A DNA stretch of 64,000 bases from Candidatus Bathyarchaeota archaeon (GTDB taxonomy: Archaea; Thermoproteota; Bathyarchaeia; JAPDIZ01), in assembly GCA_029259355.1 (NCBI GenBank), contig JAPDIZ010000003.1, forward strand, positions 69,181 to 133,180. Reading direction: 5' to 3'. This document shows positions 6,256 to 63,962 of this stretch, in pieces (the stretch's first letter is position 1; every line of letters starts with the position of its first letter). The position numbers were made by a program, and so were the translations under genes. The notes beneath the pieces are model-generated. The model saw nothing but the letters and a program-made list of their open reading frames with translations, was not told where the DNA came from and made no database searches.

Positions 6256-6987
6256 TTGAGGAATGGTCGGCTGAACATCGAGTTATCCGAAGAATCCATC
6301 CTCGCAAGGAGCTCGTCGCAGCAGGTTGTGTTGCTGATGCGTTGGGGGCTTGGATGGCTTAGGCGACGAAAATCCTCGACTCAGACGGCAGAGGTTTTGG
6401 AAGCTATAGACACTTTAGAGCGGGGAGGAGGATCGCCTAGCGTAAAAGCCATAAGCGCAGCAACCGGGTTGGGAAGCGACGAGGTTAGGAGAGTTCTAAG
6501 CGAAGCTGCTGACAAGGGGTTGGTATCGGTTGAGAGGGGAAGGCTTAGGCTCACGGACAAGGGAAGAGCTAGCGTGCTTGAGCACCGAACGAGGTATGTC
6601 CACGACCTCGTTTTAAGACCTCCCCCACCCCTCGCTACGCTCTCACGAGTTTGGGAGCGTGAGGTAAGCAGCTGGGGAGATCATTTGGTGAGAAACCACG
6701 GGATAGACCAGCAAGTAGTCCAGAGGCTTATGGAGTACAGAGGTAGAATAGAGCAGGTGGTTCCACTTACTTCGCTGGCGGAGGGGGAGAGGGGGGAAGT
6801 CGTCTTCGTATTGGGTGGGAGAGGAGCTGTTAGAAGGCTCTGGGATATGGGGCTCACCCCGGGAACCGAAGTCATCTTAGCTAGAAGAGCTCCCTTTATG
6901 GGGCCTGTCGAGGTTTTGGTTAGAGGAACGAGCTTAGCTCTTGGTAGAGGAATAGCTTCTCGAGTTTTTGTTAGAGTCAAGAGGTGA
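6256..6987 (+). CDS. winged-helix (DtxR-like) regulator with C-terminal FeoA (SH3-like) domain
   Basis: C-terminal LAEGERGEVVFVLGGRGAVRRLWDMGLTPGTEVILARRAPFMGPVEVLVRGTSLALGRGIASRVFV is FeoA-like; N-terminal HTH-like region; immediately upstream of feoB; true start uncertain. Confidence 0.65.
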   Translation: MRNGRLNIELSEESILARSSSQQVVLLMRWGLGWLRRRKSSTQTAEVLEAIDTLERGGGSPSVKAISAATGLGSDEVRRVLSEAADKGLVSVERGRLRLTDKGRASVLEHRTRYVHDLVLRPPPPLATLSRVWEREVSSWGDHLVRNHGIDQQVVQRLMEYRGRIEQVVPLTSLAEGERGEVVFVLGGRGAVRRLWDMGLTPGTEVILARRAPFMGPVEVLVRGTSLALGRGIASRVFVRVKR

Positions 6988-7107
6988 GCTCAAACGGGTA
7001 AGAGAATTAGCGTAGCGCTAGCTGGAAATGCTAATGTTGGGAAGAGCAGCCTCTTCAACCAGCTTACGGGGTCGAGCCAGCACATAGGTAACTGGCCGGG
7101 TAAGACT

Positions 7108-8958
7108 GTGGAAAAAGCTGAAGGCAAGCTGTACTACTCGGGATACGAGATATACGTGGTGGACCTGCCCGGTATCTACTCGCTGTCAGCTCTGTCGATT
7201 GAAGAGCTCATCGCTCGAGACTACATAGCCTCTGAAAAGCCCGACATAGTGATCGATGTCGTAGATGCCTCTGCTCTGGAGAGAAACCTGTACCTCACAG
7301 TGCAGCTGCTCGAACTCGAAGCCCCTCTACTGATAGCCCTCAACCAAGTAGACTTCGCCGCGAAGAGGGGGATTAGGATAGATGTCGAGGCTTTGGAAAG
7401 GGAGTTGGGGGTTAAGGTGGTTCCAACGATCGCAACCACTGGCTACGGGGTAGATGAACTCGTAAAAGCTGTAGTATCGTTCTACGAGGAGGGTAAGCCT
7501 AGCGGGAGAGCTCCAAGGTATGGGAGGGAAGTTGAGGAAGCGATAGAGGCTATCGAGAAGGAACTCTCCAACGTAACCCTTGGGGAGCTGGAGCGCTTTC
7601 CCAAAAGGTGGATTGCGATAAAGCTTCTCGAGAGAGATTCTGAGGTCTGGGAGCTGCTCTCCAAGCAGCCCAGCTGCGACGCTGTGTTTGAGGCTGTTGC
7701 GAAGTGGAGTCAAAAGATCGAGAGCATGCACGGCGAACGCGCTCCCGCCATAATCGCAGCCGAAAGATATGGGTTTATAACGCGAGTGGTTGAGCGCGTG
7801 CAGACGATAACCACACCCGCGAAGCCCTCGCTGAGCGAAGCCGTAGACGAGCTAACCACTCACCCAGTAGCGGGTTACCTGATCCTAGCTTGCGTAGTAG
7901 CTGGGATATTCGCTGCAGTCTTTGAAGGCGGATCAGCGCTCAGCGCTTTTCTTGAAAGCGTTCTATCTGGTTGGCTGCTTGCAGCGAGGCAGTGGCTCTT
8001 GAGCATCCTCCCAGCATGGGCTGTTGACGTCTTGATCGATGGGGTTCTGACGGGGTTTGTAGCGGGGCTTGTGCTCGTCATCCCATACGTCCTCCCCTTC
8101 TACGTCATACTCGCGCTGTTAGAGGACTCTGGGTACTTGCCTAGAGCCGCATTTCTCGTAGATAACCTCATGCACAAGATGGGGTTGCACGGAAAGGCCT
8201 TCATACCTCTCATGCTGGGCTTCGGCTGCAACGTCCCAGCTGTCATGGGCTGTCGAATAATGGAGACGGAGAGGGAGAGGTTCATCGCTGGCCTACTCGC
8301 TACTTTTGTGCCCTGCGCAGCTCGCACAGTCGTCATTCTCGGCGTTGTGGGAAGGTTTTTGGGCCTAGGGTGGGCGCTAGCCCTATACCTCATCGACATC
8401 TTGGTAGTGATCGCTGTGGGTAGGCTAGCTCACAGAGTTGCTCCAGGAGAGCCCATGGGCCTGATCATGGAGATGCCGCCTTACAGAAAGCCAAGCCCTT
8501 CGGTGGTGCTTAGACAGTCTTGGCTTAGGACAAAGGACTTTCTCTACATAGCTCTACCGATAATCGTGTTAGGGAGCAGCTTTTTGGAAGTGCTAAAGGT
8601 CGCGGGCGTCATCGACCAAGCCTCGCAAGCCTTTGCCCCAGCTATGAGCGCGATCCTCGGGCTACCCGGGTTTGCGGTGGTACCGCTGGTCTTTGGAGTG
8701 CTTAGGAAGGAGCTAGCTCTCGTAATGCTCGTTGAGGTAGCGGGCACGACCAACCTAAGCCTAGTGTTCACGCCTTCTCAGATGGTGGTTTTCTCACTTG
8801 TCACCATGCTCTACGTTCCCTGCATAGCTACGGTGGCAGCTCTGTTCAAGGAGTTTGGAGTTGGAAAAGCTGCGCTAATCACCGCAACAAACTTGCTGGT
8901 TGCAACCGCTTTGGGAGCGTCGTCTTTCAGGCTTATGGAGCTACTAGGCTTTTCCTAG
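7108..8958 (+). CDS. feoB: ferrous iron transport protein B (FeoB); real N-terminus lies upstream of the ORF-track start
   Basis: G3 (VVDLPG) and G4 (NQVD) GTPase motifs plus a polytopic membrane domain lie within the ORF; the G1 P-loop ALAGNANVGKSSLFNQ is encoded in the same frame at about 7015-7062, upstream of the first GTG (7108). Confidence 0.85.
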   Translation: MEKAEGKLYYSGYEIYVVDLPGIYSLSALSIEELIARDYIASEKPDIVIDVVDASALERNLYLTVQLLELEAPLLIALNQVDFAAKRGIRIDVEALERELGVKVVPTIATTGYGVDELVKAVVSFYEEGKPSGRAPRYGREVEEAIEAIEKELSNVTLGELERFPKRWIAIKLLERDSEVWELLSKQPSCDAVFEAVAKWSQKIESMHGERAPAIIAAERYGFITRVVERVQTITTPAKPSLSEAVDELTTHPVAGYLILACVVAGIFAAVFEGGSALSAFLESVLSGWLLAARQWLLSILPAWAVDVLIDGVLTGFVAGLVLVIPYVLPFYVILALLEDSGYLPRAAFLVDNLMHKMGLHGKAFIPLMLGFGCNVPAVMGCRIMETERERFIAGLLATFVPCAARTVVILGVVGRFLGLGWALALYLIDILVVIAVGRLAHRVAPGEPMGLIMEMPPYRKPSPSVVLRQSWLRTKDFLYIALPIIVLGSSFLEVLKVAGVIDQASQAFAPAMSAILGLPGFAVVPLVFGVLRKELALVMLVEVAGTTNLSLVFTPSQMVVFSLVTMLYVPCIATVAALFKEFGVGKAALITATNLLVATALGASSFRLMELLGFS

Positions 8959-23757: not shown

Positions 23758-24633
23758 TCAGAATTGATGCAGAGCCTCCCAGTACGATTCTGGGTTTCCC
23801 ACGTCGATGTACTTCTCGTGAGAGCCGAGCATAAGCGCGTAGACCTCGAAGCCCCAGTTTAGCAGGAGCTGTATGGCGTCGGTGAGCTGCTTCTCCCCAT
23901 CCCTTCCATATCCGACCCTCGTAAGAGCGTCGAATATCAAGGGCTTGAAGGCGTAGACCGCTATGGAGGCGATATTCGTCGGAGGCTCCTGAGGTTTCTC
24001 CACCACACTCCTCAGTCTTATCAAGTCGTCCTCTACGAAGTCTCCCTCAACTACACCGTAGATGCGCGGATCCTCCACCTCCTTAACTAGCATAGTTGCC
24101 GCAGGCTTGTAGGACTCGTGCACCTCCAGCAACCGCTTGATGTAGTGGTTGTCGTTTGACAGCACGAAGGAGTCTCCCGCGTAAACAATGAAGTCTTCAT
24201 CTCTAGCAAACGATCTCGCTCTCAACACCGCATCACCGAATCCCCTAGGCTTAGGCTGGTTTACCCAAACAATTATGGAGTCTTCCAGTCTGCGGTAAAA
24301 GGCGCTCAGCTCCTCAACATAATCCTGTTTGTTACGCTTCTCCAGCTCCTCTAAGAAGTCGTAGTCTGGGGTGAAATGGTCTTCAATCGCTCTCTTAGCC
24401 TTCCCCGTGATGAAGCAGAACTCCCTAATGCCCGCGTCGTATAGGTGCTCAAAGACTAGCTGAAGCAGAGGCTTAACAACAAGCCTTCCCCCGCTCTTCA
24501 CAAACACGGGAAGCATTTCTTTAGGCTGTTCCTTCGTCGCGGGGAGGAGGCGTGTTCCAAGACCCGCAGCGGGTATCACAGCTTTCCTAACCAAGGCTCG
24601 CTCCAGTCCTCCGAAACTAAGACATTTTAGCAA
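23758..24633 (-). CDS. UTP-glucose-1-phosphate uridylyltransferase (GalU-type)
   Basis: VRKAVIPAAGLGTRLLPATKEQPKEMLPV is the GalU N-terminal signature; 291 aa, no LbH domain. Confidence 0.8.
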   Translation of the reverse strand: MLKCLSFGGLERALVRKAVIPAAGLGTRLLPATKEQPKEMLPVFVKSGGRLVVKPLLQLVFEHLYDAGIREFCFITGKAKRAIEDHFTPDYDFLEELEKRNKQDYVEELSAFYRRLEDSIIVWVNQPKPRGFGDAVLRARSFARDEDFIVYAGDSFVLSNDNHYIKRLLEVHESYKPAATMLVKEVEDPRIYGVVEGDFVEDDLIRLRSVVEKPQEPPTNIASIAVYAFKPLIFDALTRVGYGRDGEKQLTDAIQLLLNWGFEVYALMLGSHEKYIDVGNPESYWEALHQF

Positions 24634-24688
24634 AACTCTTTTTAAAATACTCCATCCCGAACATTGGAAACACTATGCTCACGTTGAG

Positions 24689-25729
24689 ATGATCGACGTG
24701 CACAAAGTAGTCAGAGAAGGTTTGGAGCGAATAGAAAGAGAACTCTCGGAATACCACGAAGCCTTTGAGTCACGCAAAGTCTTAGTGGCTGGCGGAGCTG
24801 GTTTCATAGGGACTTGGGTGTGCAGAACCCTTCTACGGTTGGGAGCTGAAGTGGTGTGTGTAGACAACTTCGCAAGCTCGCTTCCCGAAAACGTTGAGGA
24901 GTTATTGAGCCAACAAGGCTTTACACTGTTAAAGAAAGACGTCTCCAAACCTCTCGCCGCTGAGGAGGTGGGTCGAGTAAACATCGTCTTGCACTTAGCT
25001 AGCCGAGCTGCACCGCCTGAGTTTGACAGCTTTCCCGTAGAAACTCTTCTCGCAAACACCGTGGGAACAGCTAACCTGCTGGAACTGTCGAGAGCTTGTG
25101 ATGCAACCTTCCTGTTCGCCTCATCCTCAGAGGTCTATGGAGACCCCCCGCCAAACTACGTACCCACGCCCGAGATCTATACTGGAAACGTCAACCCCGT
25201 AGGTCCTCGTAGCTGCTACGAAGAAGCCAAGAGGTGTGGTGAAGCTTTTGCAAAAGCCTACGAAAAGCAGTACGGCCTCGATGTGAGAATCGTCAGAATC
25301 TTCAACACCTACGGGCCGTACATGAGGGCTGAGGGCATCTACGGAAGGGTCGTCTCCCGCTTCATCACACAAGCTCTCGCAAACCAACCCATCACTATCT
25401 ACGGCGACGGAAGCCAGTCAAGAAGCTTCACTTACGTCACAGATCTCGTTAACGGGTTGCTGCGAGCAACATGCTGCGATAAAGCTAGGGGTGAGGTCAT
25501 CAACATAGGGAGTGAAAGGGAGATCAAGATCATCGAGCTAGCTCATCTGATAAAGAAGCTGACGAGGAGCAGCTCAGAATTCAAGTTTGAGCAGCCACCA
25601 CCCGACGATCCTCGAAGGAGGTGCCCTGACATATCCAAGGCGAAAAAGCTCCTTAACTGGACTCCAAAGGTAGGCCTCGAAGAAGGCCTAACCTACACAA
25701 TCGAGTGGTTTCGTGACAAGATGAGCTAA
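24689..25729 (+). CDS. UDP-glucuronate decarboxylase-like extended SDR (UXS / ArnA C-terminal domain family)
   Basis: Rossmann VLVAGGAGFIGTWV; catalytic Y-x3-K (YEEAKRCGE); C-terminal RRRCPDISKAKKLLNWTPKV resembles the UXS tail motif. Confidence 0.7.
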   Translation: MIDVHKVVREGLERIERELSEYHEAFESRKVLVAGGAGFIGTWVCRTLLRLGAEVVCVDNFASSLPENVEELLSQQGFTLLKKDVSKPLAAEEVGRVNIVLHLASRAAPPEFDSFPVETLLANTVGTANLLELSRACDATFLFASSSEVYGDPPPNYVPTPEIYTGNVNPVGPRSCYEEAKRCGEAFAKAYEKQYGLDVRIVRIFNTYGPYMRAEGIYGRVVSRFITQALANQPITIYGDGSQSRSFTYVTDLVNGLLRATCCDKARGEVINIGSEREIKIIELAHLIKKLTRSSSEFKFEQPPPDDPRRRCPDISKAKKLLNWTPKVGLEEGLTYTIEWFRDKMS

Positions 25730-30145: not shown

Positions 30146-30703
30146 GTGTATAGGAGGCTACAGATAGCCATAGCTACCACCTACGACATCCCCCCAGAAC
30201 ATGTAGTGGAGAAGGCTAAAGCAGTTGCCAGAGAGCTTGCGAAGAGGGAGTGCGTTGTTCTCACAGGAGGCAACGGAGGCTTGATGACCATTATCGCGAA
30301 GGAGGTGAACGAGGCAGGAGGGATAACTGTCGGCATATTGGCCAAGGAGCTGGAAGACCTCCCCTGCGACCACCCTTGGCACAACCCCTACAACACCATA
30401 GAAATTAGGTCGGGCGCTTCCTTCGCCATAAGGAGCTTCGTGCTCGTAAACAGCTGCGACGCGCTAATAGTCATCGCTGGAGGCTCTGGAACGCTGACGG
30501 AGGTGGCTATGGCCTACAACTACGGTAAGCCCATAGTCGTGCTTAGGGGGACGGGGATGATTGCAGAGACGTTGGAGAAGAGCTTCCCCGATGGATACCT
30601 AGACCACAGAAAAACGACTAAGATAGTCTTTGCCGACACCCCAGAGGAGGCTGTAGAGATCGCTTGCCGCAAAGCAGAGGAGTGGCGTAGGCGAACCACT
30701 TAA
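30146..30703 (+). CDS. Rossmann-fold nucleotide-binding protein, LOG/TIGR00725-like
   Basis: VLTGGNGGLMTIIAKEV...ALIVIAGGSGTLTEVAMAY resembles the LOG family fold. Confidence 0.5.
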   Translation: MYRRLQIAIATTYDIPPEHVVEKAKAVARELAKRECVVLTGGNGGLMTIIAKEVNEAGGITVGILAKELEDLPCDHPWHNPYNTIEIRSGASFAIRSFVLVNSCDALIVIAGGSGTLTEVAMAYNYGKPIVVLRGTGMIAETLEKSFPDGYLDHRKTTKIVFADTPEEAVEIACRKAEEWRRRTT

Positions 30704-30704
30704 A

Positions 30705-31847
30705 TTGAGATGCTTAGGTGTCTGTGGAGAAGGGGGTCGTTGCTTCGTGGGATATGAAGTTTCTAAGGCTTTGGTAACTGGCGGAGCAGGCTTCGTAGGC
30801 GTAAACTACGCCAAACACCTCCTTGATCGAGGGGTTGAGGTCGTTGTATACGACAACTTTGGGAGAGGCCCTGGGGGAAAGATAAACTGCGAGTGGCTTA
30901 GTAAGCACCCCAACGCCAACAAGCTAGAGGTTGTTGAAGGAGACGTGAGAGACTTCGAGTCCTTGAAGAAAGCTGCCTCTGGATGTGATCTCATCCTCCA
31001 CGCTGCTGCGCAAGTATCGGTTCCGCTGTCCATGGAGGAGCCCAAGGTAGACTTCGAGATCAACGTGTTGGGAACCTTTAACGTGCTCGAGGTTGCGCGA
31101 AGCCTAAACACAGACCCAGCCGTGATCTACACCTCGACGAACAAAGTCTACGGAATCCCTGAGTACGAGCTGGTGGAACTGGAGACGAGATACGACTTCA
31201 CTGGCGACCTGCTTGGGGTTGATGAGAAAGCTCAGCTCAAAGCTGAGGAGCCCTATGGAGCAAGCAAAGCCGTTGGAGACCTCTACGTGAAGGCGTATCA
31301 CAACATCTATGGCCTAAAAACCGTCTCCTTCAGGTGCTCCTGCATGTATGGACCGAGGCAGTGGGGCGTTGAAGAGCAGGGATGGGTTGCGTGGTTCTGC
31401 ACCGCCTTCGCCCTAGGATACCCCATCACCATCTTCGGCAACGGAAAGCAGGTTAGAGACCTCCTATACATAAGCGACGTAGTAGAGGCTTTCGACCTCG
31501 CACTCGACAACATCGACAAAGTAGCTGGTTTAGGCATCAACTTAGGTGGTGGAAAAGAAAATGCGGTTTCGCTTCTAGAGGTCATCGCATACCTCGAGCA
31601 GCTCTCTGGCAGAAAAGTCGATATCCAATTCACCGACTGGCGACCATTTGACAACAAGTGCTACTACACCGACATCACTCTCGTTAAGAAGCTGCTGGGG
31701 TGGATTCCAAAGGTTTCTTGGCGCGACGGAGTGAGAATGACTTACGAATGGGTTAAGGAAAACCTCGAGGTTATTGAAGAGGTGTATCGCTCCAAAGAGG
31801 GAAGAAGCTTAAGACCTATGGTGGAAGCCGCAAAGAAACATGGCTGA
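30705..31847 (+). CDS. NAD-dependent nucleotide-sugar epimerase/dehydratase (extended SDR) with Cys-rich N-terminal extension
   Basis: TTG start; ALVTGGAGFVGVNYAKHLL; Y-x3-K (YGASKAVGD); N-terminal MRCLGVCGEGGRC leader precedes the Rossmann motif. Confidence 0.75.
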   Translation: MRCLGVCGEGGRCFVGYEVSKALVTGGAGFVGVNYAKHLLDRGVEVVVYDNFGRGPGGKINCEWLSKHPNANKLEVVEGDVRDFESLKKAASGCDLILHAAAQVSVPLSMEEPKVDFEINVLGTFNVLEVARSLNTDPAVIYTSTNKVYGIPEYELVELETRYDFTGDLLGVDEKAQLKAEEPYGASKAVGDLYVKAYHNIYGLKTVSFRCSCMYGPRQWGVEEQGWVAWFCTAFALGYPITIFGNGKQVRDLLYISDVVEAFDLALDNIDKVAGLGINLGGGKENAVSLLEVIAYLEQLSGRKVDIQFTDWRPFDNKCYYTDITLVKKLLGWIPKVSWRDGVRMTYEWVKENLEVIEEVYRSKEGRSLRPMVEAAKKHG

Positions 31848-54452: not shown

Positions 54453-55914
54453 TACTGACCTCCTCTATCCAATACTCTACCACCCAGTAGCCGCTATCGA
54501 ACAACCTGATCTGTCCAGAGCTTGAAGCTGAGCGCTCCACCACCACGTATGCAGGAGGCTTCGTCACATAGCTTGGCGTAAGTGGGTATGCCCACCACCA
54601 ATGCCCCACCCCATATGCGGTGAGAACAGGTTCAGCCCCTCTCTCCACAACAAACGAGTATACCAAGCTCTCCTCCCAAGATATTCCGTAAAAACCCACC
54701 GACTTCTCAACCACTACTCGAGCCATAAGCGTTGCCCAAACCCCTTGGATTAAGATAAGCACCGCGACCAAAGCAAGCGCGAGCACCCAGACCCACCTAG
54801 AGGGGAGAGGAAGGCGCAGAGCCTCCGCTGCATCGCGTAGGAGCAAGGCGAGGGCAAAAATTCCTAGAGTGCTTAAGCAGAGAACGGGGTACGTTAGGTA
54901 CTGGATGAAACGGGCTATGGCATATTCGCCCACAACTCCTGAAGCGATGAGGAGGTGAGGAGCAACCACCCAAGCAGCAATCGCTTCCCTGGCCAAGGAC
55001 GAAGAGCTTTCTCGCTTCATCGCCAAGTAGACCACTCCAAGCATAGCGAGCGCAGTATAGGGGAGGAAGTAGCTTGCGAGGTAGAAGTTTTTCAGTGCCA
55101 AGACTCTCCAATCGCTCACCAAGCCTTTTTTAGGAAGCTGCTCAGCTATGCGAAGCCCACGAACAAGCGATTGAGCAGCTCTCGAAGTCATCGATCTGCT
55201 CTCTACAAACAAGTTAACGCTGTTTACCTCTTGATGCCAAGCATATGCGTAGGCGGTTGCACCTATCAACGCAACCAAAACCCACAGCCAGTCCAGCCGC
55301 TTCTTCGCCAACGCGTAGAGAGTGAGTAGCAAAAGCGTCGAGAAGGCCACAGCGGGGGTGGAGAGGTGCAGAGACCCAGCGAATGAGAGAATCAGGAAGA
55401 CAACTAGGGCTTCTCGAGCGCCAACTCGCTTGCTCGAAACAAATGCAAGGAGAAGGGCTACAAAGAAAAAACCTATGGCTGTTGGGTAGCCTCCCCACGA
55501 ATACACTAACAGATCGTTTATCGAAAGCGCGACGAAGGTGGAGGCGAGGAGAGCAAAGCTTCTTCCCAGCTTAGAGCACAGGCAATACACTGCAAGCACT
55601 GACAAAGAGTTTAGGGTGATGGAGATTAGAGTGAGCGCGGTCAGCGCTTGGAGAGCGTCTAGAGAAGAAGCTGTGGCTACGCAAGCAGCGACCACGTGGA
55701 TTGAAGATGCGTAGACTCTCCACGCATCTATCCAAAAGTACCCAAGCCGATCTACATTCTCTATGGCCAAAACCTGCGAGAGGTGTCTACCCGCATCACT
55801 TCCGCAGCCAGCGTATCCATCGAAGCCGTAGGCTTTCACCGAAAAGCTGAGCACAAGGATTAGGGCTAAAGTTAGCTTGCGCATACATAAGCGCGATCTA
55901 AGCTCTTCAGCCAA
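54430..55914 (-). CDS. polytopic membrane protein with C-terminal soluble domain (possible GT-C-like glycosyltransferase or polymerase)
   Basis: 494 aa, more than 10 hydrophobic helices; 23-nt overlap with the downstream methyltransferase. Confidence 0.4.
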   Translation of the reverse strand: MAEELRSRLCMRKLTLALILVLSFSVKAYGFDGYAGCGSDAGRHLSQVLAIENVDRLGYFWIDAWRVYASSIHVVAACVATASSLDALQALTALTLISITLNSLSVLAVYCLCSKLGRSFALLASTFVALSINDLLVYSWGGYPTAIGFFFVALLLAFVSSKRVGAREALVVFLILSFAGSLHLSTPAVAFSTLLLLTLYALAKKRLDWLWVLVALIGATAYAYAWHQEVNSVNLFVESRSMTSRAAQSLVRGLRIAEQLPKKGLVSDWRVLALKNFYLASYFLPYTALAMLGVVYLAMKRESSSSLAREAIAAWVVAPHLLIASGVVGEYAIARFIQYLTYPVLCLSTLGIFALALLLRDAAEALRLPLPSRWVWVLALALVAVLILIQGVWATLMARVVVEKSVGFYGISWEESLVYSFVVERGAEPVLTAYGVGHWWWAYPLTPSYVTKPPAYVVVERSASSSGQIRLFDSGYWVVEYWIEEVSIEAGEEA

Positions 55915-55972
55915 CCCCTCACCTTCGAAGCTCCTTATCCAAGTAGCTTTTTATAATAGCGCTTGTTAATCT

Positions 55973-56986
55973 GTGAGACCAGCATTGACTCAAGTGCTTT
56001 TGGCTTTACAACTCCTTGCATCGATGGCTTTATCGTTTGCAGCTACGTACATCCTCGTACCACTAGCCATAGAGAGGCTAACAGCTAGAGGTATCTTCGG
56101 CGTAGATGTCCACAAACCTACTCAGCCCCGAGTGCCAGAGATGGGTGGAGTAGCATTTGTTGGAGGATACCTGCTTGGAATGCTATACCTCCTCACCGCA
56201 TTCCCTGGCTACATAACCCCCATACTGGCTGCGCTTTGCAGCATACTGATGATCTGTTTGATGGGGATGCTTGACGACATACTCGACCTAAGCCAGAGGA
56301 CCAAAGCAACCCTTCCACTAATAGCATCCCTTCCGCTGATAATAGCTGTGAGCAGCGACCGCGCCATGCTCATCCCCCTCATCGGTCGAGTCCAGCTAGG
56401 CCTCATCTACCCCTTCCTCTTGGTTCCCATAGGCGTCACAGCTGCGTCCAACTTAACTAATCTATTAGCAGGGTTCAACGGCTTAGAAGCGGGTATGGGG
56501 ATAATCGCTCTCTCCTCTCTGGTGATATCTGCCCTGTTAATAGGACACGATTTATGCGCAGTGATAGCAGCGCCCATGATCGGCGCACTAGCCGCTTTCT
56601 TCCTCTTCAACCGATACCCAGCTAGGATCTTCCCGGGAAACGCGGGCACCTTCTCGATAGGTGCTGTGGTTGCTGCAGCCGTTATACTGGGCGATATGGA
56701 GGTTATAGGCGTAATATGCCTCATGCCCTACATCATAGAGTTCTTCATCAAAGCAAGAACCAAGTTCAAGGGGGTTTGCTTCGGCGTTCTAAACCCCGAC
56801 GGAACGCTTTCTCCGCCAAGAGGCAAGCACGTCGAGTCCTTAACCCACATCCTCATGCTCAACGGAAGATGCACTGAAAAGGGTTTGGTGTATAGGCTGC
56901 TGCTCATAGAAGCATTCTTTGGCACGATAGCCATAGTTGTAGCTCACTTAAGCCTCTACTTCATTCTACTCAGACCAGTCAGCTAG
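55973..56986 (+). CDS. MraY/WecA-family UDP-HexNAc:polyprenyl-phosphate HexNAc-1-phosphate transferase (AglH-like)
   Basis: MGMLDDILDLS (D-D motif), NLTNLLAGFNGLEAG, FPGNAG; paralog of 12521-13486. Confidence 0.8.
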   Translation: MRPALTQVLLALQLLASMALSFAATYILVPLAIERLTARGIFGVDVHKPTQPRVPEMGGVAFVGGYLLGMLYLLTAFPGYITPILAALCSILMICLMGMLDDILDLSQRTKATLPLIASLPLIIAVSSDRAMLIPLIGRVQLGLIYPFLLVPIGVTAASNLTNLLAGFNGLEAGMGIIALSSLVISALLIGHDLCAVIAAPMIGALAAFFLFNRYPARIFPGNAGTFSIGAVVAAAVILGDMEVIGVICLMPYIIEFFIKARTKFKGVCFGVLNPDGTLSPPRGKHVESLTHILMLNGRCTEKGLVYRLLLIEAFFGTIAIVVAHLSLYFILLRPVS

Positions 56987-56991
56987 TACCA

Positions 56992-57433
56992 GAAGTAGGG
57001 GTTGTTGCAAGCAATCCACGCAAGCTGGAGTATGCTGTAGACGAAGTAGGCAGCGATCAGCGCGTAACTAGCCATGCGCTCACGCAGCGAAGCAGTTTGG
57101 AGCGCACCACAGGCAATGACCATCGCCAGCAGTGGAGTAGCAGCCAGCATGTACCTCGCCTCCTTGTGTATGAATAAGGAGTGTGCAAAGAGCTAGTGCG
57201 AAAGCATTAGCTGAAATAAACCAAGTCTTTTGATCTCCACGTAACAGAGCTATTAGCACAAGGTACAGCGCTGGGCCAAAGATTGCGAAGAAACAGTAGT
57301 AGAAGAACTCTGGGGGAGAGGAGTACTGTATGAGCAAAACCTGCTCTGTGTTTAGGTTAAAGGTTAGGAAGCGCCAAGGTGACTTAAACGGAACTCCATA
57401 AACCACGTAATCTAAGAGAGCTTGAATTGCCAT
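56992..57433 (-). pseudogene. frameshifted small membrane protein gene (possibly GtrA-like)
   Basis: One frame gives MAIQALLDYVVYGVPF...LLIHTQGG (57080-57433); a different frame continues ...EARYMLAATPLLAMVIACGALQTAS...MASYALIAAYFVYSILQLAWIACNNPYFW to a stop near 56992. Both halves are hydrophobic and protein-like. Confidence 0.4.
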
Positions 57434-57982
57434 AGCTACCGAGAAGCCAGCGACATAGGGAAAAGCAGCTTTGGAGAAGCGGTGAAGCTGGGGTTTAAAG
57501 AGGCTAGAGGAGACATAATCGTCCCAGTGATGAGGGATAGATCCGATATCCCTAAGCTACTGAAAGCTGTTCTCTCAGGCTACGACATAGCCATAGGCTC
57601 GAGGTTCATCAAGGGATCCAAGCTCGTAGGCCACCCGAGGTGGAAGCTATCCGCCAACAGGCTATACAACGCTTTGCTAATGGTTGTTACGGGGAGGAGG
57701 ATATCCGACTTCACCAACGCCTTCAAAGCATACAAAGGGGAAGTGCTAGATGGGATTAACCCAAGCTCGAGAAGCTTCGACATAACAGCGGAAATCGCGC
57801 TGAAGGCTGTGTTCATGGGAGCAAGAATGGTCGAAGTTCCCGTAGAGTGGAGAGGAAGAAGCAAAGGAGAGGCTAAGTTTAAGCTAACCGTTGGAGCAAG
57901 CTACCTCGCTACGCTGCTCAGGGTTTGGGTAGAGGGAATTGTGGGTAGAGCCTTATCCAAAGCTCGACGAGTTGTGTGGTGA
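57422..57982 (+). pseudogene. 5'-truncated GT2 (Dpm1-like) glycosyltransferase remnant
   Basis: Aligns to residues about 75 onward of the GT2 at 16059-16808 (GEAVKLGFKEARGD vs GEGTARIEGFNRS); the N-terminal nucleotide-binding region is absent and the catalytic MDADLSHPP position reads MRDRSDIP. Confidence 0.5.
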
Positions 57983-58080
57983 ATAGCCCTCTGCAAAGCG
58001 GTAGTTAAGCTGAGTCGAGGAAAAGCTCTTTTGAATGATGCGGGTTTTACGCTTATGCAAGGGGGAAGGCGAAGCTGTCC

Positions 58081-59136
58081 AAAGTAGTCATAACTGGAGG
58101 ATTAGGCTTCATAGGCTTCAACTTCGCTACGCACTTCCTCAGAAGCTATCGAGAAGACGGTGTAGAGGTCGTGTTAGTCGACAACTTATCGGATCCGAGC
58201 GGGGGAGCTTACAAAAACATGGTAACGCTTCTCAGACACCATGGAGAGGATGTTGAGAAGGGTTTGCTGAGGATCGTTCCAACAGATGTGAGAGATTTTG
58301 AAGCTCTTCGCCAGACGTTGAGAGATGCAGACACCGTCCTACACTTCGCTGCTCAAGTAGCTATGAAGCCCTCGCTCGAAGACCCCATAACCGATTTTGA
58401 GATAAACGCGCGCGGAACGCTAAACGTCTTAGAAGCTGCGAGGAGATCGGAATCGAACCCCGTGATGCTCTACACCTCAACTAACAAGGTGTATGGACGG
58501 CTCGATAGAGTACCACTAGTGGAGAAGGAGCTTCGCTGGGACTACTCAGAGGATTCGCCATACTATGAGGGAATTACCGAGGATTACCCGCTCGACATAG
58601 GAGGGCCTTACGGCATAAGCAAGTGCGCAGGCGACATGTACTTTCGAGAATACGCCAAAACCTACGGCATGAAGACCATAGTCTTCCGTATGTCAGCCGT
58701 ATATGGTGAGAACCAGTACACAACCGAAGTACACGGCTGGGTTGGGTGGGTTATCTCGCGAGCGCTTTTGAAAAAGCCCCTAACCATATTCGGCGATGGA
58801 AAACAGGTTCGTGGAGTGTTGCACGTGCAAGACCTAATCGAAGCGTTTGAGCTTGCGCAAAAAAACATCAACCGAGTTAGGGGTGAGGCATTCAACATAG
58901 GGGGAAACCGCCGAAACTCTCTCTCCATCCTCGAGCTGCTCAAGCTGCTCAAGGAGAGATACGGCGTCGCTCCCTCTGAGGTTAGGTATGCGAATTGGAG
59001 AAAAGTGGATCAGAAGTGCTTCATAGCTAACTGCCGAAAAGCTTTGGAGTACTTTGGGTGGAGGCAGAAGATAAGTAAGGAAGAAGGCATCGACCGGATG
59101 ATCGCTTGGGTTCGGCAAAACATCGCCGATAGCTAG
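58081..59136 (+). CDS. NAD-dependent nucleotide-sugar epimerase/dehydratase (paralog of 30705-31847), no canonical start codon for the Rossmann motif
   Basis: Frame-1 translation from 58081 gives KVVITGGLGFIGFNFATHFL...; Y-x3-K (YGISKCAGD); first in-frame ATG/GTG/TTG is GTG at 58171, after the Rossmann motif. Confidence 0.7.
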   Translation, partial: KVVITGGLGFIGFNFATHFLRSYREDGVEVVLVDNLSDPSGGAYKNMVTLLRHHGEDVEKGLLRIVPTDVRDFEALRQTLRDADTVLHFAAQVAMKPSLEDPITDFEINARGTLNVLEAARRSESNPVMLYTSTNKVYGRLDRVPLVEKELRWDYSEDSPYYEGITEDYPLDIGGPYGISKCAGDMYFREYAKTYGMKTIVFRMSAVYGENQYTTEVHGWVGWVISRALLKKPLTIFGDGKQVRGVLHVQDLIEAFELAQKNINRVRGEAFNIGGNRRNSLSILELLKLLKERYGVAPSEVRYANWRKVDQKCFIANCRKALEYFGWRQKISKEEGIDRMIAWVRQNIADS

Positions 59137-60587
59137 CGAACCAGCTTCTCATATTTTCTCAGCCACTTGATAATTCGAGGTTCTAGAGGAAGCTTGAGGA
59201 AGCGCGTCTTCCACCGAATACTCTCGATTTTGCCCAAAGCCTCTAAAAGAACTCCGAGAGATTTCTTCGAAACCTTGTGCTTTAAGCTGGGGTGGTGTAC
59301 TAGCCACGTGATGAAGCACAGCTCCTCCAACATTTCTCCATACTCTTTGGTGAGCCAAGGGGAAACCGCAACGTCGTATGAGAAGAACGCCCACTCCTCC
59401 AAGCTCCTTGGCTCCCTTAAACCGTGTTTGAGCGAGAACTCATAGAGAGGAGTCCCTGGGTATGGTGTGTAGATGAAGAGGGAGAGGTGAGATTCTGGGT
59501 TGATTTCGCGAAGCTTCTCCATAACCCTGATCGTCATGTAGACATCACCGTAGGTTTCGCCGGGAAAACCAACCATGAAAGAGTATTCGGGAACGATGCC
59601 GAATTTCTTGCACTTCTCCGCAGACCTCAGGATATCGCTTACCGTTATGTCCTTCTTGATGAGCTCAAGTATTCTAGGGGATCCAGATTCTGCGCCTAGA
59701 AGCAGAGAGCGGCAGCCGCTTCTGCTAATCCAGCCCATAAGCTCATCGCTAAAACCCGCTACATAGTCGCATCTGCAGCTCGCGCTCCAACCAATGTCCA
59801 AACCCTCCTCAACAATGCCTCTGCATATCTCAACAACTCTTCTTCTGTCCACGAAGAAGTTGTCGTCTTGGAAGCGAACACCCTTGATGCGGTAGCGCCA
59901 AACGAGGCTCTTCAGCTCCTCAACAACTCTCCTCGACGATAGGGGAAACCACTTTCTGCCATAGAAACGAGATATCGCGCAAAACGCGCAGCGATGCACA
60001 CACCCACGGCTCGTTATGTAGTCTAAGGTTTTGTCAGAAGCTTCATCTTTAACGCAGTATTTCTCAACGTTGATTAAGTGGTAGGCAAGCGGGGGAAACT
60101 TATTCACATCCTCCAGCAGCCTCTCGGGATTATGCTGAACTTCTCTACCATACTTGTAAGATAAGCCTAGCAACCCCTTTAGCTCGTCTCCCTTCTCTAG
60201 CCGCTGCACAAGCTCTAGTAGCGTAAGCTCTCCTTGCCCTCTCACCACAGCATCTACCAAGGGGTGGCTAACTGTCTGCTCAGGAAGAAGCGTTGGGTGG
60301 AAGCCTCCCCAGACGACAAAGGCTCCCTGCTCCTTCGCGGCAGCCGAAGCAGCCAAGCCGTCTCTGATTTGAAAGCCCGTCATCGAGCTTACTCCAATGC
60401 AGAGAGCGGAGCGCGATAGCTTCCTGATGGTATGCTCAAAGTCATCATCCAGCCTAGCGTCTACTATTTCCACCTCATAACCTGCTTTCTCGAGAACAGG
60501 TGCTAGCGCTAACAGCGAAAGGGGGGCTCTGTTGACCGGAACCCCAGTTCGGGGATAGAAGAGAACTACCCTCCCGCTCAAGCCCAA
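59133..60587 (-). CDS. B12-binding-domain radical SAM enzyme (class B radical SAM)
   Basis: N-terminal cobalamin-binding-like domain (VVLFYPRTG...EVEIVDARLDD); radical SAM CxxxCxxC (CVHRCAFCAIS); 484 aa. Confidence 0.8.
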   Translation of the reverse strand: MGLSGRVVLFYPRTGVPVNRAPLSLLALAPVLEKAGYEVEIVDARLDDDFEHTIRKLSRSALCIGVSSMTGFQIRDGLAASAAAKEQGAFVVWGGFHPTLLPEQTVSHPLVDAVVRGQGELTLLELVQRLEKGDELKGLLGLSYKYGREVQHNPERLLEDVNKFPPLAYHLINVEKYCVKDEASDKTLDYITSRGCVHRCAFCAISRFYGRKWFPLSSRRVVEELKSLVWRYRIKGVRFQDDNFFVDRRRVVEICRGIVEEGLDIGWSASCRCDYVAGFSDELMGWISRSGCRSLLLGAESGSPRILELIKKDITVSDILRSAEKCKKFGIVPEYSFMVGFPGETYGDVYMTIRVMEKLREINPESHLSLFIYTPYPGTPLYEFSLKHGLREPRSLEEWAFFSYDVAVSPWLTKEYGEMLEELCFITWLVHHPSLKHKVSKKSLGVLLEALGKIESIRWKTRFLKLPLEPRIIKWLRKYEKLVR

Positions 60588-60632
60588 AAAACCCGCGTGA
60601 AAAATTGCGAAGCTTTAGATATCACTACCAAG

Positions 60633-60851
60633 CTAAAGATAGCCAAGCGCTCTCAGCCTTCGCTTTATCTCTTCTTCCTCCTCCGGGCTATAGGGATACT
60701 CTTCACCCTCTTCTTCTTTGAGGAGTTCGGTGAGCACGAACTCGATAAACTCTTCTACGTCTTTGAAAGCTCCCTCACTTTCCTTGACTTTCTCCTCAAT
60801 TTTTTGGTAAAGCGATTTGGGGATGGATATAGTTACCTTCTCTGCGCTCAT
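60633..60851 (-). CDS. small ribbon-helix-helix-like protein with acidic C-terminal tail
   Basis: KVTISIPKSLYQKIEEKV (RHH-like strand/helix) followed by a Glu-rich tail; start overlaps the cysC stop by 4 nt. Confidence 0.5.
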   Translation of the reverse strand: MSAEKVTISIPKSLYQKIEEKVKESEGAFKDVEEFIEFVLTELLKEEEGEEYPYSPEEEEEIKRRLRALGYL

Positions 60852-61402
60852 CCTCGCACCATCCTTGGAGGCTCTTCTATGTACCCAAGGTTTTTCAAAG
60901 TTTCCAAAATCTTCTCCACACAGCTGTCTGGGCTTTCAGCTTCCGTATCCAGTACGACCTCGGGGTTCTCTGGCTCCTCGTACACGTCCTGTATACCAGT
61001 CATATCGCTTATCTCACCCCTTAAGGCTCTTCTGTACAAGCCCTTGGGGTCTCTGCGGATGCAAGTTTCTAGAGAGCACTTAACGTATACCTCGACAAAG
61101 TCTTTGATGAGTTCTCTGGCAAACCTCCTCACCGAGCGGTAGGGCGAGACAAACGATGCGATAACCACAACTCCGTTGCGAGCTAATAGGTGGCTGACGT
61201 ATGCTACTCTGCGGAGGTGCCTCTCCCGATCCTCTCTGCTAAAGCCCGCCTCAGGGCTAAGCCACTTCCTCACCTCATCCCCATCCAAAACCTCTACGGG
61301 GAAGCCATAGGTTCTCAGCACGGGCTCAAGCTTCCTAGCTATGGTAGTCTTTCCAGAGCTAGGAAGCCCGGTCAGCCAGATGACGAAGCCACGGCGCATC
61401 AC
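60848..61402 (-). CDS. cysC: adenylylsulfate (APS) kinase
   Basis: P-loop GLPSSGKTT; ASFVSPY; DPKGLYRRALRGEI...TGIQDVYEEP; 184 aa. Confidence 0.9.
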   Translation of the reverse strand: MMRRGFVIWLTGLPSSGKTTIARKLEPVLRTYGFPVEVLDGDEVRKWLSPEAGFSREDRERHLRRVAYVSHLLARNGVVVIASFVSPYRSVRRFARELIKDFVEVYVKCSLETCIRRDPKGLYRRALRGEISDMTGIQDVYEEPENPEVVLDTEAESPDSCVEKILETLKNLGYIEEPPRMVRG

Positions 61403-62790
61403 ACAGCCTCCACTAGGGACCGCCCCCTCAACCCAATAGGTTTCTCCAAACCAAAGAGCTCGAAAAGGGTGGGGGCTATGTCGTAGATAGATGCGCTCCT
61501 CCTCCCTTGACTTATCCTTCCCTCGGGGTCGTGCAGTATGTATACTCCGTGCATTGAGTGTACTGCATCATCTGGGCCTATGTCGTTTTCCGGAAGATAC
61601 ATGGTTCCATGGCCAAGCGTGCCCGCTGACCTCCAGTAGAGGTCGTCGAAGTAGACGAGGAGATCTGGGTAATCCCCCGATACGGTGGAGTAGAGCTGCT
61701 CAGGCTTGTAGACCTTAGTTTCCATTCTCCTACCGCTTGGATCGTCTATTTTTCGAAGCTCATCAGCTAGCTCCTCCCTAAAAGATTCGTAGCTGCTGGG
61801 GTCTATAACACCCCTAGGCTCTCTTCCCCTGACGTTGATGAAGATTCTTGCGTAGTATCCTCCCCACCCCCATGCCTTGGTGCGATCCCAGTCTACGGAT
61901 AGCTTTTCTAGGTCTACGACGCCCCCTGGCTTATGCTTGATGACCAAGTATCCCTTTTCGATGAGCCATTCGTTGACGCAGAAAGCACCCCTCATCCCCT
62001 TCGCTCCATGGTCTGAAACAACCAAGATGAGCACATCTTTTCCAACCACCTTCAAGAGCTCAGCGATTTTCTGGTCAACATACTTGTAGTAGTCTTCGAT
62101 AACGTGCTCAAACTCGTTTCCCGGAGTGTAGAGGTGGTGCGTAGGGTCGAAGAACTTCCAAAACGCGTGGTGGACACGATCAACACCGATCTCAACGAAC
62201 ATGAAGAAATCCCACTTTTTGCGCGAAGCCAAGTGGTTTATCGCCTTAAAGTGCAGATCCGTCATGTGATACAGCTCTCGAAGAAGCCGTTTCCGCTGCT
62301 CAGTCCTAAACTCCACATCAAAGACATACTTCTCGCCAATTACCCTCTCGATCTCAAATCTAAGCAGTGAGGGGTAGGTGTACTGCTTATCAGCTGAGGG
62401 AGTTATGAAGCAAGACACCCAGCACCCCTTGACAGGCTTTGGTGGATATCCTGGAGGCACGCTTACTATGCAAGAGCGCATTCCTCTCTTCGAAAGCTCG
62501 TCCCAAACAGCGGGGTACTTGACGCTATGGGAGTTCACGATGTATGTCTCGTCATAGGAACCCAGCTTCCTATGCCTAAAGCCATACATCCCAAGCTCTC
62601 CAGGCTCTCTCCCAGTAGCCATAACGATCCACGCGGGAATCGTTATTGGAGGATGACAACTCTCCAAAGAGCCGTAGAAGCCCCCATCCATCAAGGAGGA
62701 TATGGTTGGCAGAGAATCTCTAAACCTCTCGAAAACCAGCTCTGGAGGAGCACAGTCTAAGCCAATCACCAAAACTCTATTGCTCCTCAT
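61399..62790 (-). CDS. alkaline-phosphatase-superfamily enzyme (type I phosphodiesterase / nucleotide pyrophosphatase-like), function unknown
   Basis: N-terminal VLVIGLDCAPPEL and mid-protein LILVVSDHGA resemble metal-ligand motifs of the PF01663-like alkaline phosphatase fold (from memory); 4-nt overlap with cysC. Confidence 0.55.
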   Translation of the reverse strand: MRSNRVLVIGLDCAPPELVFERFRDSLPTISSLMDGGFYGSLESCHPPITIPAWIVMATGREPGELGMYGFRHRKLGSYDETYIVNSHSVKYPAVWDELSKRGMRSCIVSVPPGYPPKPVKGCWVSCFITPSADKQYTYPSLLRFEIERVIGEKYVFDVEFRTEQRKRLLRELYHMTDLHFKAINHLASRKKWDFFMFVEIGVDRVHHAFWKFFDPTHHLYTPGNEFEHVIEDYYKYVDQKIAELLKVVGKDVLILVVSDHGAKGMRGAFCVNEWLIEKGYLVIKHKPGGVVDLEKLSVDWDRTKAWGWGGYYARIFINVRGREPRGVIDPSSYESFREELADELRKIDDPSGRRMETKVYKPEQLYSTVSGDYPDLLVYFDDLYWRSAGTLGHGTMYLPENDIGPDDAVHSMHGVYILHDPEGRISQGRRSASIYDIAPTLFELFGLEKPIGLRGRSLVEAV

Positions 62791-62795
62791 CTAAT

Positions 62796-63962
62796 TCACT
62801 CCACAAAGGGCTTTTCGTAAGATAGCAGAACCTCAGCAACCTCTGGCCTAACCATGTAGGGCGGGGGTCGCTCCCTCCTGCTTATCAATTCCCTAAGCTT
62901 GGTGCCGCTAAACCTTACCCTAAGCTCCTCGCTATGCGGGCATATCTTCTCATTAACTATCCCGCCGCACTTTTCGCAGTAGAGGAACTCTCTGAAGAAG
63001 AGGGGGACTATGCCTAGGTCTGGGAACTGCTTGAAAATCTCCTGAGCCTCATATGGCCCGTAGTAGTTACCTACGCCTGCGTGGTCTCTACCCACGATGA
63101 AGTGCGTACACCCAAAGTTCTTCCTCATTATGGCGTGGTGAACAGCCTCTCTCGGCCCAGCGTAGCGCATTTGATACCGCAATATGCTCAAAACGACGGT
63201 GTCTTTCGGGAAGTAGTTCTTGGTGAGGACATCGTAAGCTCTCAAAATGACTTCGTCGCGAAAATCCCCTCTCTTCTTCCTACCTATCACTGGGTTTATG
63301 AATAGGCCATCTACGAAGGCTAGCGCCGACTTCTGGAGGTACTCGTGGCCGAGGTGGGGGGCGTTTCTCGTCTGAAAGCCCACGACCGTCCTCCAACCCC
63401 TCTCCCTAAACAAAACTCTCGTCTCAATAGGTCGGAGAGTGTAGCGGTAGAAGGGGTTTGGCGCTTCTCCAATGAGCTCTATTTCCCCTCCAATCAGCAG
63501 CTCCTTCGCTGAATAAAGCTTAGCCACACCAGGGTGGTTTGCATCCCGTGTCTTGAACACCTTCTCCGCGTACTCACCCCTATCCCAAGGATAAACCTCC
63601 TCAACGCGGAGAACTGCAAGAGGTGTTTCGCTAAAGAAGAGAGCAGCTTCATCACCCTCCCTAAGCTCGCCCAAATCCTCCTTAGAGACATCGAGGACTA
63701 TAGGGATAGTCCAAGGAAGACCATTCAGCAACCTCATCTCATAGAGAACGCTCTCAAGCTCATCTCGGCACAAAAAGCCCGTCAACGGGCTGTATATCCC
63801 ATGACCAATGTTCTCGAGGTCTAGGGCGTGATCCTCATCTACGTATATCCTATGCATTTCCCTAGACTCGATTAGTAGGCGCTGAAGCCTAGCTCCCTTG
63901 GCGACGCGAACCACCAACGAGCCGCCGTGAGGCTTCGACACCAAGCTCTCCGCAGCCTCCAC
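62796..63962 (-). CDS. sat: sulfate adenylyltransferase (ATP sulfurylase)
   Basis: QTRNAPHLGHEYL and VGRDHAGVG motifs; N-terminal PUA-like domain; 388 aa. Confidence 0.9.
   Translation of the reverse strand: MEAAESLVSKPHGGSLVVRVAKGARLQRLLIESREMHRIYVDEDHALDLENIGHGIYSPLTGFLCRDELESVLYEMRLLNGLPWTIPIVLDVSKEDLGELREGDEAALFFSETPLAVLRVEEVYPWDRGEYAEKVFKTRDANHPGVAKLYSAKELLIGGEIELIGEAPNPFYRYTLRPIETRVLFRERGWRTVVGFQTRNAPHLGHEYLQKSALAFVDGLFINPVIGRKKRGDFRDEVILRAYDVLTKNYFPKDTVVLSILRYQMRYAGPREAVHHAIMRKNFGCTHFIVGRDHAGVGNYYGPYEAQEIFKQFPDLGIVPLFFREFLYCEKCGGIVNEKICPHSEELRVRFSGTKLRELISRRERPPPYMVRPEVAEVLLSYEKPFVE

Follow-up and report, generated by a model that had tools for sequence, protein, structure and literature searches.

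The window considered here is a stretch of 64,000 nucleotides from a Candidatus Bathyarchaeota archaeon (contig JAPDIZ010000003.1 of assembly GCA_029259355.1). Near its 3' end it carries a gene for a putative CDP-tyvelose/paratose 2-epimerase-like enzyme whose reading frame has no ATG, GTG or TTG ahead of the NAD-binding motif. An initial annotation of this DNA compared the gene with an epimerase paralog of the same window, described a Cys-containing leader that would lie in another frame than the catalytic domain, and offered three ways of bridging the two: a 1-nt indel, a programmed +1 frameshift or non-AUG initiation at CTG 58075. This report describes the reading frame of the epimerase gene, the evidence on where its translation may begin, comparable cases in the same enzyme family and in the same window, and the explanations that compete with one another. 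The features discussed are collected in Table 1.

The Epimerase Gene and its Reading Frame

The epimerase frame is closed on its 5' side by a TGA and then stays open from 58039 to its TAG. The initial annotation was right that no in-frame ATG, GTG or TTG precedes the Rossmann motif: the 44 codons from 58039 to the GTG at 58171, the first canonical start, contain none. A start-free stretch of this length has a chance probability of about 0.15 and is not rare by itself, and it is a real anomaly because the Pfam Epimerase domain begins at 58084, before that GTG. On the stop-to-stop translation this domain is matched from profile position 1 to 240 (E=1.5e-45), residue 16 of the open frame (58084) corresponding to profile position 1, and a start at GTG 58171 cuts off 29 domain residues including the NAD-binding GxxGxxG. 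The public gene calls (P0001 and P0122) begin there with MLVDNLSD, comprise 321 aa without the NAD-binding motif and are 32 residues short of a product started at CTG 58075.

The two ATG codons at 58035 and 58038 lie in the frame one base earlier, where they head an open reading frame (ORF) of 73 codons that ends at 58256; a +1 shift would therefore be required to join them to the Rossmann frame. Downstream of 58084 the substitutions between the two lineages compared below are conservative in the epimerase frame and would be W to R, S to G and H to R in the ATG frame.

By sequence the predicted product is an ordinary extended short-chain dehydrogenase/reductase (SDR; PF01370) that is nearest to CDP-tyvelose/paratose 2-epimerases, and its putative activity is named accordingly. 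The nearest solved homologs are CDP-tyvelose (CDP-paratose) 2-epimerases, namely PDB 9rl0_E (E=2.7e-80, query 3-348 against chain 2-338) and 1orr_A (E=3.3e-71), which align end to end and have the TGGxGFxG motif, the S/T and the YxxxK in common with it; TGGxGxxG, S/T and YxxxK are all intact in the window protein. Many homologs carry the label CDP-paratose 2-epimerase at the Joint Genome Institute (JGI). Matches to NCBIfam equivalog models (dTDP-glucose 4,6-dehydratase, GalE and others) were all far below the cut-offs.

Table 1. Features of the epimerase gene, its paralog and feoB (window positions; SD, Shine-Dalgarno; CDS, coding sequence).
Feature	Position	Strand	Remarks
Epimerase CDS, proposed	58075..59136	+	353 codons + TAG 59134-59136, CTG start; CDP-tyvelose/paratose 2-epimerase-like SDR
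CTG, proposed near-cognate initiation codon	58075..58077	+	Aligned with homolog Met1; identical in five assemblies
SD-like GGGGG	58061..58065	+	Inside AAGGGGGAAGG at 58059-58069
Rossmann strand beta1 and GxxGxxG NAD-binding motif	58081..58116	+	KVVITGGLGFIG
Catalytic YxxxK (YGISK)	58609..58623	+	Alignment to CDP-tyvelose 2-epimerase 9rl0_E
Catalytic S/T in STNKVYG	58477..58497	+	Alignment to CDP-tyvelose 2-epimerase 9rl0_E
GTG, first canonical start, used by public calls	58171..58173	+	GTC in lineage 2
GTA (Val4)	58084..58086	+	GTG in lineage 2, start of 350-aa call there
ATGATG, other frame, "leader" ORF to 58256	58035..58040	+	Poor SD
TGA closing epimerase frame upstream	58036..58038	+	
Paralog CDS, 366 aa	30747..31847	+	GTG start; TTG at same codon in lineage 3
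Paralog SD GGAGAAGGGGG	30726..30736	+	Kept as GAGGAGGGGG with 1-nt indel in lineage 3
Paralog pseudo-leader (TTG ... MRCLGVCGEGGRCF), predicted untranslated spacer	30705..30746	+	Directly 3' of upstream gene's stop 30701-30703
FeoB	6980-8958	+	Candidate start ACG 6994, predicted N-terminus (M)GKRISVALAGNANVGK

Proposed Initiation at CTG 58075

Five assemblies from five samples, drawn from NCBI/ENA contigs and Logan assemblies, were compared: the window, L001 (ENA ERZ25515360, 99.55% identity to the window over 6 kb) and three members of a second lineage, hereafter lineage 2, at about 98.7% identity (L002-L004; Logan SRR24791474, ENA/NCBI ERZ25515408 and Logan SRR21024894). All five, across both lineages, have the same run of five G (G5) at 58061-58065 and the same CTG without any indel, the variable sites 58053 and 58086 flank the CTG, and 15 further sites differ in the gene (17 in total). 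The offset between the ATGATG frame and the Rossmann frame is thus real, being identical across the five assemblies.

The strength of Shine-Dalgarno (SD) elements was taken as the duplex energy with the anti-SD AUCACCUCCU, and all gaps are aligned gaps. At CTG 58075 the energy is -9.1 kcal/mol, a value reached by 6% of random positions, and the gap is 9 nt. Energies of -8 kcal/mol or stronger occur at 41% of the 44 assigned starts of the window versus 9% of background positions, and the SD gaps of window genes are mostly 5-10 nt. The ATG codons at 58035 and 58038 have an energy of -5.9 kcal/mol, which is background level, at gaps of 14 and 17 nt, and GTA 58084 lies 18 nt from the SD.

The alignment of the N-terminus points to the same codon. 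Read from the CTG, the sequence L-S-K-V-V-I-T-G-G (CTG-TCC-AAA-GTA-GTC-ATA-ACT-GGA-GGA) stands against MSKVLITGG, MPRILITGG and MQRILITGG in the nearest homologs (~60% identity), with the CTG at Met1. A CTG start places 7 residues before the T of TGG, the modal class (6-8 residues in 81 of ~110 homologs), and the protein would exceed the crystallised CDP-tyvelose 2-epimerase by one residue (query residue 3 corresponds to chain residue 2).

Between the window and lineage 2 the epimerase gene has accumulated 12 synonymous and 5 nonsynonymous differences, that is, a ratio of nonsynonymous to synonymous substitution rates (dN/dS) of 0.12 (P=3.7e-5 versus neutrality). The CTG lies inside this diverged tract, and purifying selection has therefore acted on the gene while the CTG was present. 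A test of codon and frame conservation is weak here, with an overall divergence of only about 1.3%.

On the strength of the SD, the alignment with Met1 and purifying selection, non-AUG initiation is favoured among the three options of the initial annotation, and SD-guided initiation at CTG 58075 appears to be the best explanation, with a probability of roughly 0.6. The GGGGG at 58061-58065 would pair with the 3' end of the 16S rRNA and place the small ribosomal subunit, so that the initiator Met-tRNA would read the near-cognate CUG 9 nt downstream, at what would be the ancestral position of the ATG. The predicted product has 353 residues and begins (M)SKVVITGGLGFIG, its expected N-terminal peptide is (M)SKVVITGGLGFIGFNFATHFLR, and its expression would probably be below that obtained from AUG. 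Neither the upstream ATGATG nor the TTG at 30705 of the paralog would be translated into these proteins. That CUG is the codon used, rather than AAG 58072 or none, and how efficiently it would serve are points that we infer from the sequence.

Two promoter-like elements were recognised by eye, TTTTGAAT at 58029-58036, which would give a transcription start at ~58058, and GTTAAGC at 58004-58010, which would give one near the ATG codons. The ATGATG at 58035 probably belongs to the promoter or 5' region and falls outside the protein. Rfam and tRNA scans of the window returned no matches.

Probable Near-Cognate Starts in the Same Enzyme Family

In three other clusters of homologs with N-terminally truncated gene calls, a near-cognate codon stands at Met1 behind a strong SD, and canonical starts are absent ahead of the Rossmann motif. 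They are represented by P0012, with GGAGG 7 nt from an ACG (AAAGGAGG-cttaacc-ACG-GGT-CGC-ATT-CTG-ATA-ACG-GGT-GGG), by P0044, with GGAGG 6 nt from an ATA (AAGGAGG-caggcg-ATA-GAC-AAG-ATT-CTT...), and by P0049/P0050, again with GGAGG 6 nt from an ATA (AAGGAGG-ccaaag-ATA-GAC-AGG-GTT...); the loci are L012/L013 (2063-2130) and L014-L017 (about 2400-2500). The two ATA lineages share 88.7% identity, their proportion of differing synonymous sites (pS) is 0.44, and over the 27 codons from the ATA to the first canonical GTG dN/dS is 0.17 in that frame versus 1.4-1.8 in the other two. There is thus good evolutionary evidence from these comparisons that the ATA alleles would be translated from a non-canonical start.

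In L014-L017 this ATA and the TAG stop of an upstream NTP-transferase gene overlap (ATAG), and P0021 (560 aa) is a natural fusion of an NTP-transferase with an epimerase; coupling of the two genes in L014-L017, or their fusion by recoding, is conceivable. Two homologs with very short N-termini (P0057 and P0104) were considered as further hidden near-cognate starts and set aside, canonical starts having been found upstream.

FeoB, a Probable Second Case in the Window

The FeoB frame is open from 6988 and encodes the P-loop GNANVGKS at 7024-7047, the first canonical start being GTG 7108, past the P-loop. Translated from that GTG, the protein matches the Pfam FeoB_N profile from 36 to 155 with 145 bits, and with 40 upstream codons added the match extends from 2 to 155, the P-loop is restored and the score rises to 216 bits. 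The SD GAGGTGA at 6981-6987 (-11.7 kcal/mol) overlaps the stop of FeoA, and ACG 6994, six bases past it (gap 9 nt), would give the modal N-terminal length among 121 FeoB homologs. In a third lineage (lineage 3) one A fewer in the A-run 6992-6994 brings GTG 6984, inside the SD, into frame, and the gene is called there with 657 aa; the ACG is in frame in all three lineages (L020/L021 and L023 compared), and dN/dS of FeoB versus lineage 3 is 0.063. The public FeoB calls P0169/P0172 have 616 aa and are without the P-loop. ACG 6994 is the probable start of FeoB on this comparative evidence. The nearest named relatives of the window FeoB belong to Ca. Bathyarchaeia (~55% identity).

In a Pfam scan of all ~58 stop-to-stop frames of the window, only FeoB and the epimerase were found to need a non-canonical start (about 3%).

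The Paralog and the Supposed Cys-Rich Leader

The initial annotation stated that the ORF of the paralog runs continuously in frame from 30705, as it does, a TTG standing there, and proposed that the two epimerases share a conserved Cys-rich N-terminal extension. The two leader peptides (MR.L..C.GEG) have a local score of 30, which is reached by 0.6% of shuffles and by none of 72 peptides obtained by translating the DNA ahead of other genes, a significance that is nominal, the comparison having been chosen post hoc; at the DNA level the leader regions have only AAGGGGG in common, which is not significant. Conservation of this similarity in orthologs, on which the initial annotation had made its proposal depend, was not found. 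In the paralog ortholog L022 of lineage 3 (pS 0.37 to the paralog) a 1-nt deletion, which turns GTGGAGAAGG into GT-GAGGAGG, breaks the frame of the leader, the codon at 30747 is TTG instead of GTG, and conservation of the coding type starts only there.

Other observations place the start of the paralog at this same codon. Gene callers in NCBI, ENA and Logan give a protein of 366 aa from GTG 30747 (P0173), and the 380-aa form from TTG 30705 is absent from a collection of 15 billion proteins. The Pfam domain of the paralog begins 7 residues past GTG 30747, its dN/dS versus lineage 3 is 0.106, and its SD reaches -10.3 kcal/mol at a gap of 10 nt to GTG 30747, the SD of TTG 30705 being weak (-5.2 kcal/mol). 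Most of the ~110 family homologs start 2-6 residues ahead of strand beta1; the few longer N-termini are unrelated in sequence. Judged from these alignments, the resemblance in "C.GEG" and "GEGG" is a putative purine-rich SD element, GG(N)GAAGG, read as codons, and the idea of a Cys leader is wrong: predicted untranslated SD and spacer DNA had been read as protein.

Genomic Neighborhood

A deletion of 1,210 bp relative to lineage 2 is shared by the window and L001. It lies between 13-nt direct repeats, GA(A/G)AAGCAGCTTT, and has its junction at 57458-57472 (the deleted stretch is 2153-3363 in L002-L004, and the corresponding window region is 57080-57982). Lost with it are the N-terminal ~2/3 of a GT22/PMT_2 membrane glycosyltransferase on the minus strand, 68 residues from the N-terminus of a GT2 glycosyltransferase on the plus strand and the divergent promoter of the two. 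The GT22 remnant contains an extra 1-nt frameshift at 57187. Compared with either L001 or L003, 12 nt are missing from the window at 57541. Over 55319-63136, pS between the window and L003 is highest for the GT2 remnant (0.14), intermediate for the epimerase (0.05) and the Phosphodiest gene (0.04) and low for the radical-SAM and GT4 genes (~0.01), and the adenosine 5'-phosphosulfate (APS) kinase gene has a pS of 0; so strong a mosaic is suggestive of homologous recombination between strains. The epimerase region appears to be missing from lineage 3.

A large glycan-biosynthesis cluster occupies 10-46 kb and 53-64 kb of the window and includes several GT1/GT4 and GT2 glycosyltransferases, three NTP-transferases, a phosphomannomutase, a UDP-glucose dehydrogenase, a DegT aminotransferase, three SDR epimerases/dehydratases and methyltransferases. 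Adjoining it are genes for ATP-sulfurylase and APS kinase (sulfate activation), a Phosphodiest-family protein and a B12-binding radical-SAM enzyme. The cluster together with the sulfate-activation set hints at a sulfated or otherwise modified surface glycan. The third SDR of the window (GDP-mannose-dehydratase/UXS-like, 24464-25729, plus strand) has its Rossmann motif 31 residues past ATG 24689 and is called at 346, 343 or 335 aa by different sources; its start is uncertain, and canonical options exist.

Alternative Explanations

An assembly or sequencing indel within the G5 run has next to no probability. A true G4 would yield one continuous ORF, MMRVLRLCKGKAKLSKVVITGG, joining ATGATG to the Rossmann frame, but the five assemblies, from five samples and from two lineages that differ elsewhere in the gene, agree through the G5 run and the CTG, and the resulting 15-residue extension is without counterpart among the homologs. 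A programmed +1 frameshift would start at ATG 58035 or 58038 and pass into the epimerase frame, for example by a slip of Gly-tRNA on GGG-G at 58062-58065, to give MMRVLRLCKG-KAKLSKVVITGG. The G5 run could permit P-site re-pairing in the +1 frame, the arrangement is kept in both lineages, and with a TTAAG at about -29 a leaderless mRNA could begin at ATG 58035. The AGGGGG is similar to the internal SD by which the prfB frameshift of bacteria is stimulated, and the window shares with frameshifting of that type (internal AGGGGG SD, then CUU-UGA) both this element and a start codon one frame behind the main ORF. Unlike prfB, the site is archaeal and has neither an in-frame stop nor a slow or known hungry codon near the shift (GAA follows the G5 run, and the 0 frame is open over 73 codons), the upstream ORF is without a credible initiation signal, no SD being at usable distance from the ATG codons, and the peptide is not conserved in the ortholog of the paralog, where the look-alike leader is frame-broken. 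No homolog has such an extension, the ACG homolog L012 has no out-of-frame upstream ATG able to serve, and the stretch 58030-58120 has no notable RNA fold (z=-1.06); a frameshift is accordingly very improbable. Initiation near the same SD at another non-canonical codon (AAG 58072), or at a low level at several codons, can be given slightly more credit and is still improbable. The gap of AAG 58072 is 6 nt, the modal SD gap, and its 8-residue lead-in also falls in the modal class. AAG is among the weakest near-cognate codons where measured, and it is CTG, not AAG, that aligns exactly with Met1 of the homologs. In Escherichia coli CUG falls in the 1-2% class and most other codons in that of 0.1-1% (bioRxiv 10.1101/063800).

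A different kind of explanation is loss of the start codon, in which the true start would be the GTG found at 58084 in lineage 2, and the window, with GTA, would make little or no enzyme and represent a young, intact pseudogene in a decaying glycosylation locus. This is unlikely, while deserving serious attention, and several observations weigh against initiation at CTG 58075, some of them in favour of start-codon loss. In lineage 2 the callers start a 350-aa protein, P0121 (MVITGG...), at that GTG; the lineage of the window is without the N-terminal parts of two adjacent glycosyltransferase genes and their promoter, so the pathway may be decaying and the epimerase may be unexpressed; and a dN/dS of 0.12 cannot separate the two branches. 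The conservation of the 5' region between the window and lineage 2 (1 substitution in 176 nt versus 20 in 354 nt upstream) was dropped as a sign of constraint, a pS of 0-0.14 along the locus suggesting a recombination mosaic. The protein search gave no homolog between 99% and 62% identity that would polarise GTA versus GTG or date the CTG, and a scan of GTDB genomes for an outgroup gave distant bacterial matches only. In vitro, selection against AUU at least has been shown for archaeal aIF1 (PMC4705826). CUG initiates weakly where it was measured; in E. coli it reaches, as do AUA, AUC and AUU, 1-2% of the level of AUG (bioRxiv 10.1101/063800). Against start-codon loss, a GTG at 58084 would be 18 nt from the only SD, the usual gap being 5-10 nt, and would leave a 4-residue lead-in to TGG, a length seen in just 4 of ~110 homologs; canonical starts further upstream exist for two of these at least (L024 and L025). 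The GTA/GTG difference is a third-position transition that leaves the amino acid unchanged, synonymous changes being the most frequent class between the lineages (12 of 17), and the L-S-K codons upstream of it match the M-S-K of homologs. Near-cognate starts are maintained in homologs and needed for FeoB in the same genome, and the deletion looks recent, as the substitutions in the GT2 remnant are still mostly synonymous (dN/dS 0.11).

Start-Codon Usage in the Window and in Other Prokaryotes

Among the 44 assigned starts of the window, TTG (~18) appears to be commoner than ATG (15) and GTG (11). Examples of TTG starts are 11240(-), 11511, 13572, 14691, 27233(-), 40014(-) and 54452(-), and several were confirmed by Pfam alignments that run from profile positions 1-3 and by a GGAGG or GGTGA SD 5-9 nt upstream. 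Other genes of the window have a TATA-like box ~20-27 nt upstream and no SD, which suggests that its mRNAs are a mix of leaderless and SD-led forms. The common TTG starts fit a tolerant reading of the first base of the start codon. A TTG-rich usage is likewise found in Aeropyrum pernix/Thermoproteota, TTG being the most used start in A. pernix (cited in PMC2830850). A relaxed start-codon stringency on SD-led mRNAs in this archaeon, and perhaps in a wider related group, may be put forward as a tentative and rather doubtful generalisation from these patterns, from the two genes among ~58 with a probable near-cognate start, and from the ACG or ATA that three other lineages of the epimerase family carry independently at Met1, one of these cases being stable over a pS of ~0.44.

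Non-canonical starts are already a known phenomenon, to which the putative CTG start of the epimerase adds a further case. They comprise CTG in Deinococcus rpsL, Deide_03051 and RepA of an E. coli plasmid, ATC in dnaA and ATT or ATA in infC (PMC2830850). As in the Deinococcus, infC and RepA cases, a conserved N-terminal element of the epimerase precedes every ATG, GTG and TTG, the near-cognate codon stands at the Met1 of homologs and is kept in relatives, and annotation truncates the protein. The cases in PMC2830850 are bacterial, several with proof from the N-terminal peptide, whereas that of the window comes from an uncultured archaeon and is known from sequence comparison; unlike infC, the epimerase shows no apparent regulatory role such as autoregulation. 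In Haloferax volcanii ~30% of the mapped alternative initiation sites were near-cognate, but these were set aside (PMC7261190). The accepted archaeal set of start codons is AUG, GUG and UUG (PMC4705826), and the proposed use of CTG and ACG in the window goes beyond it.

Implications

Neither a conserved Cys leader nor a programmed frameshift, either of which would have been the more unusual finding, is supported. The truncated epimerase without its NAD-binding motif and the truncated FeoB without its P-loop would be artefacts, the gene callers accepting no start codons other than ATG, GTG and TTG, and metabolic reconstructions from such metagenome-assembled genomes could wrongly score these genes as broken. 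With two probable cases in 64 kb and three more among homologs of the epimerase, there is a hint that initiation at CUG, ACG and AUA behind a strong SD is tolerated or exploited by some archaea, a domain in which it is poorly documented. If relaxed stringency is true and general, gene callers would systematically yield N-terminally truncated, inactive-looking proteins from such genomes, and near-cognate starts would be maintained in them, possibly as a means of tuning expression.

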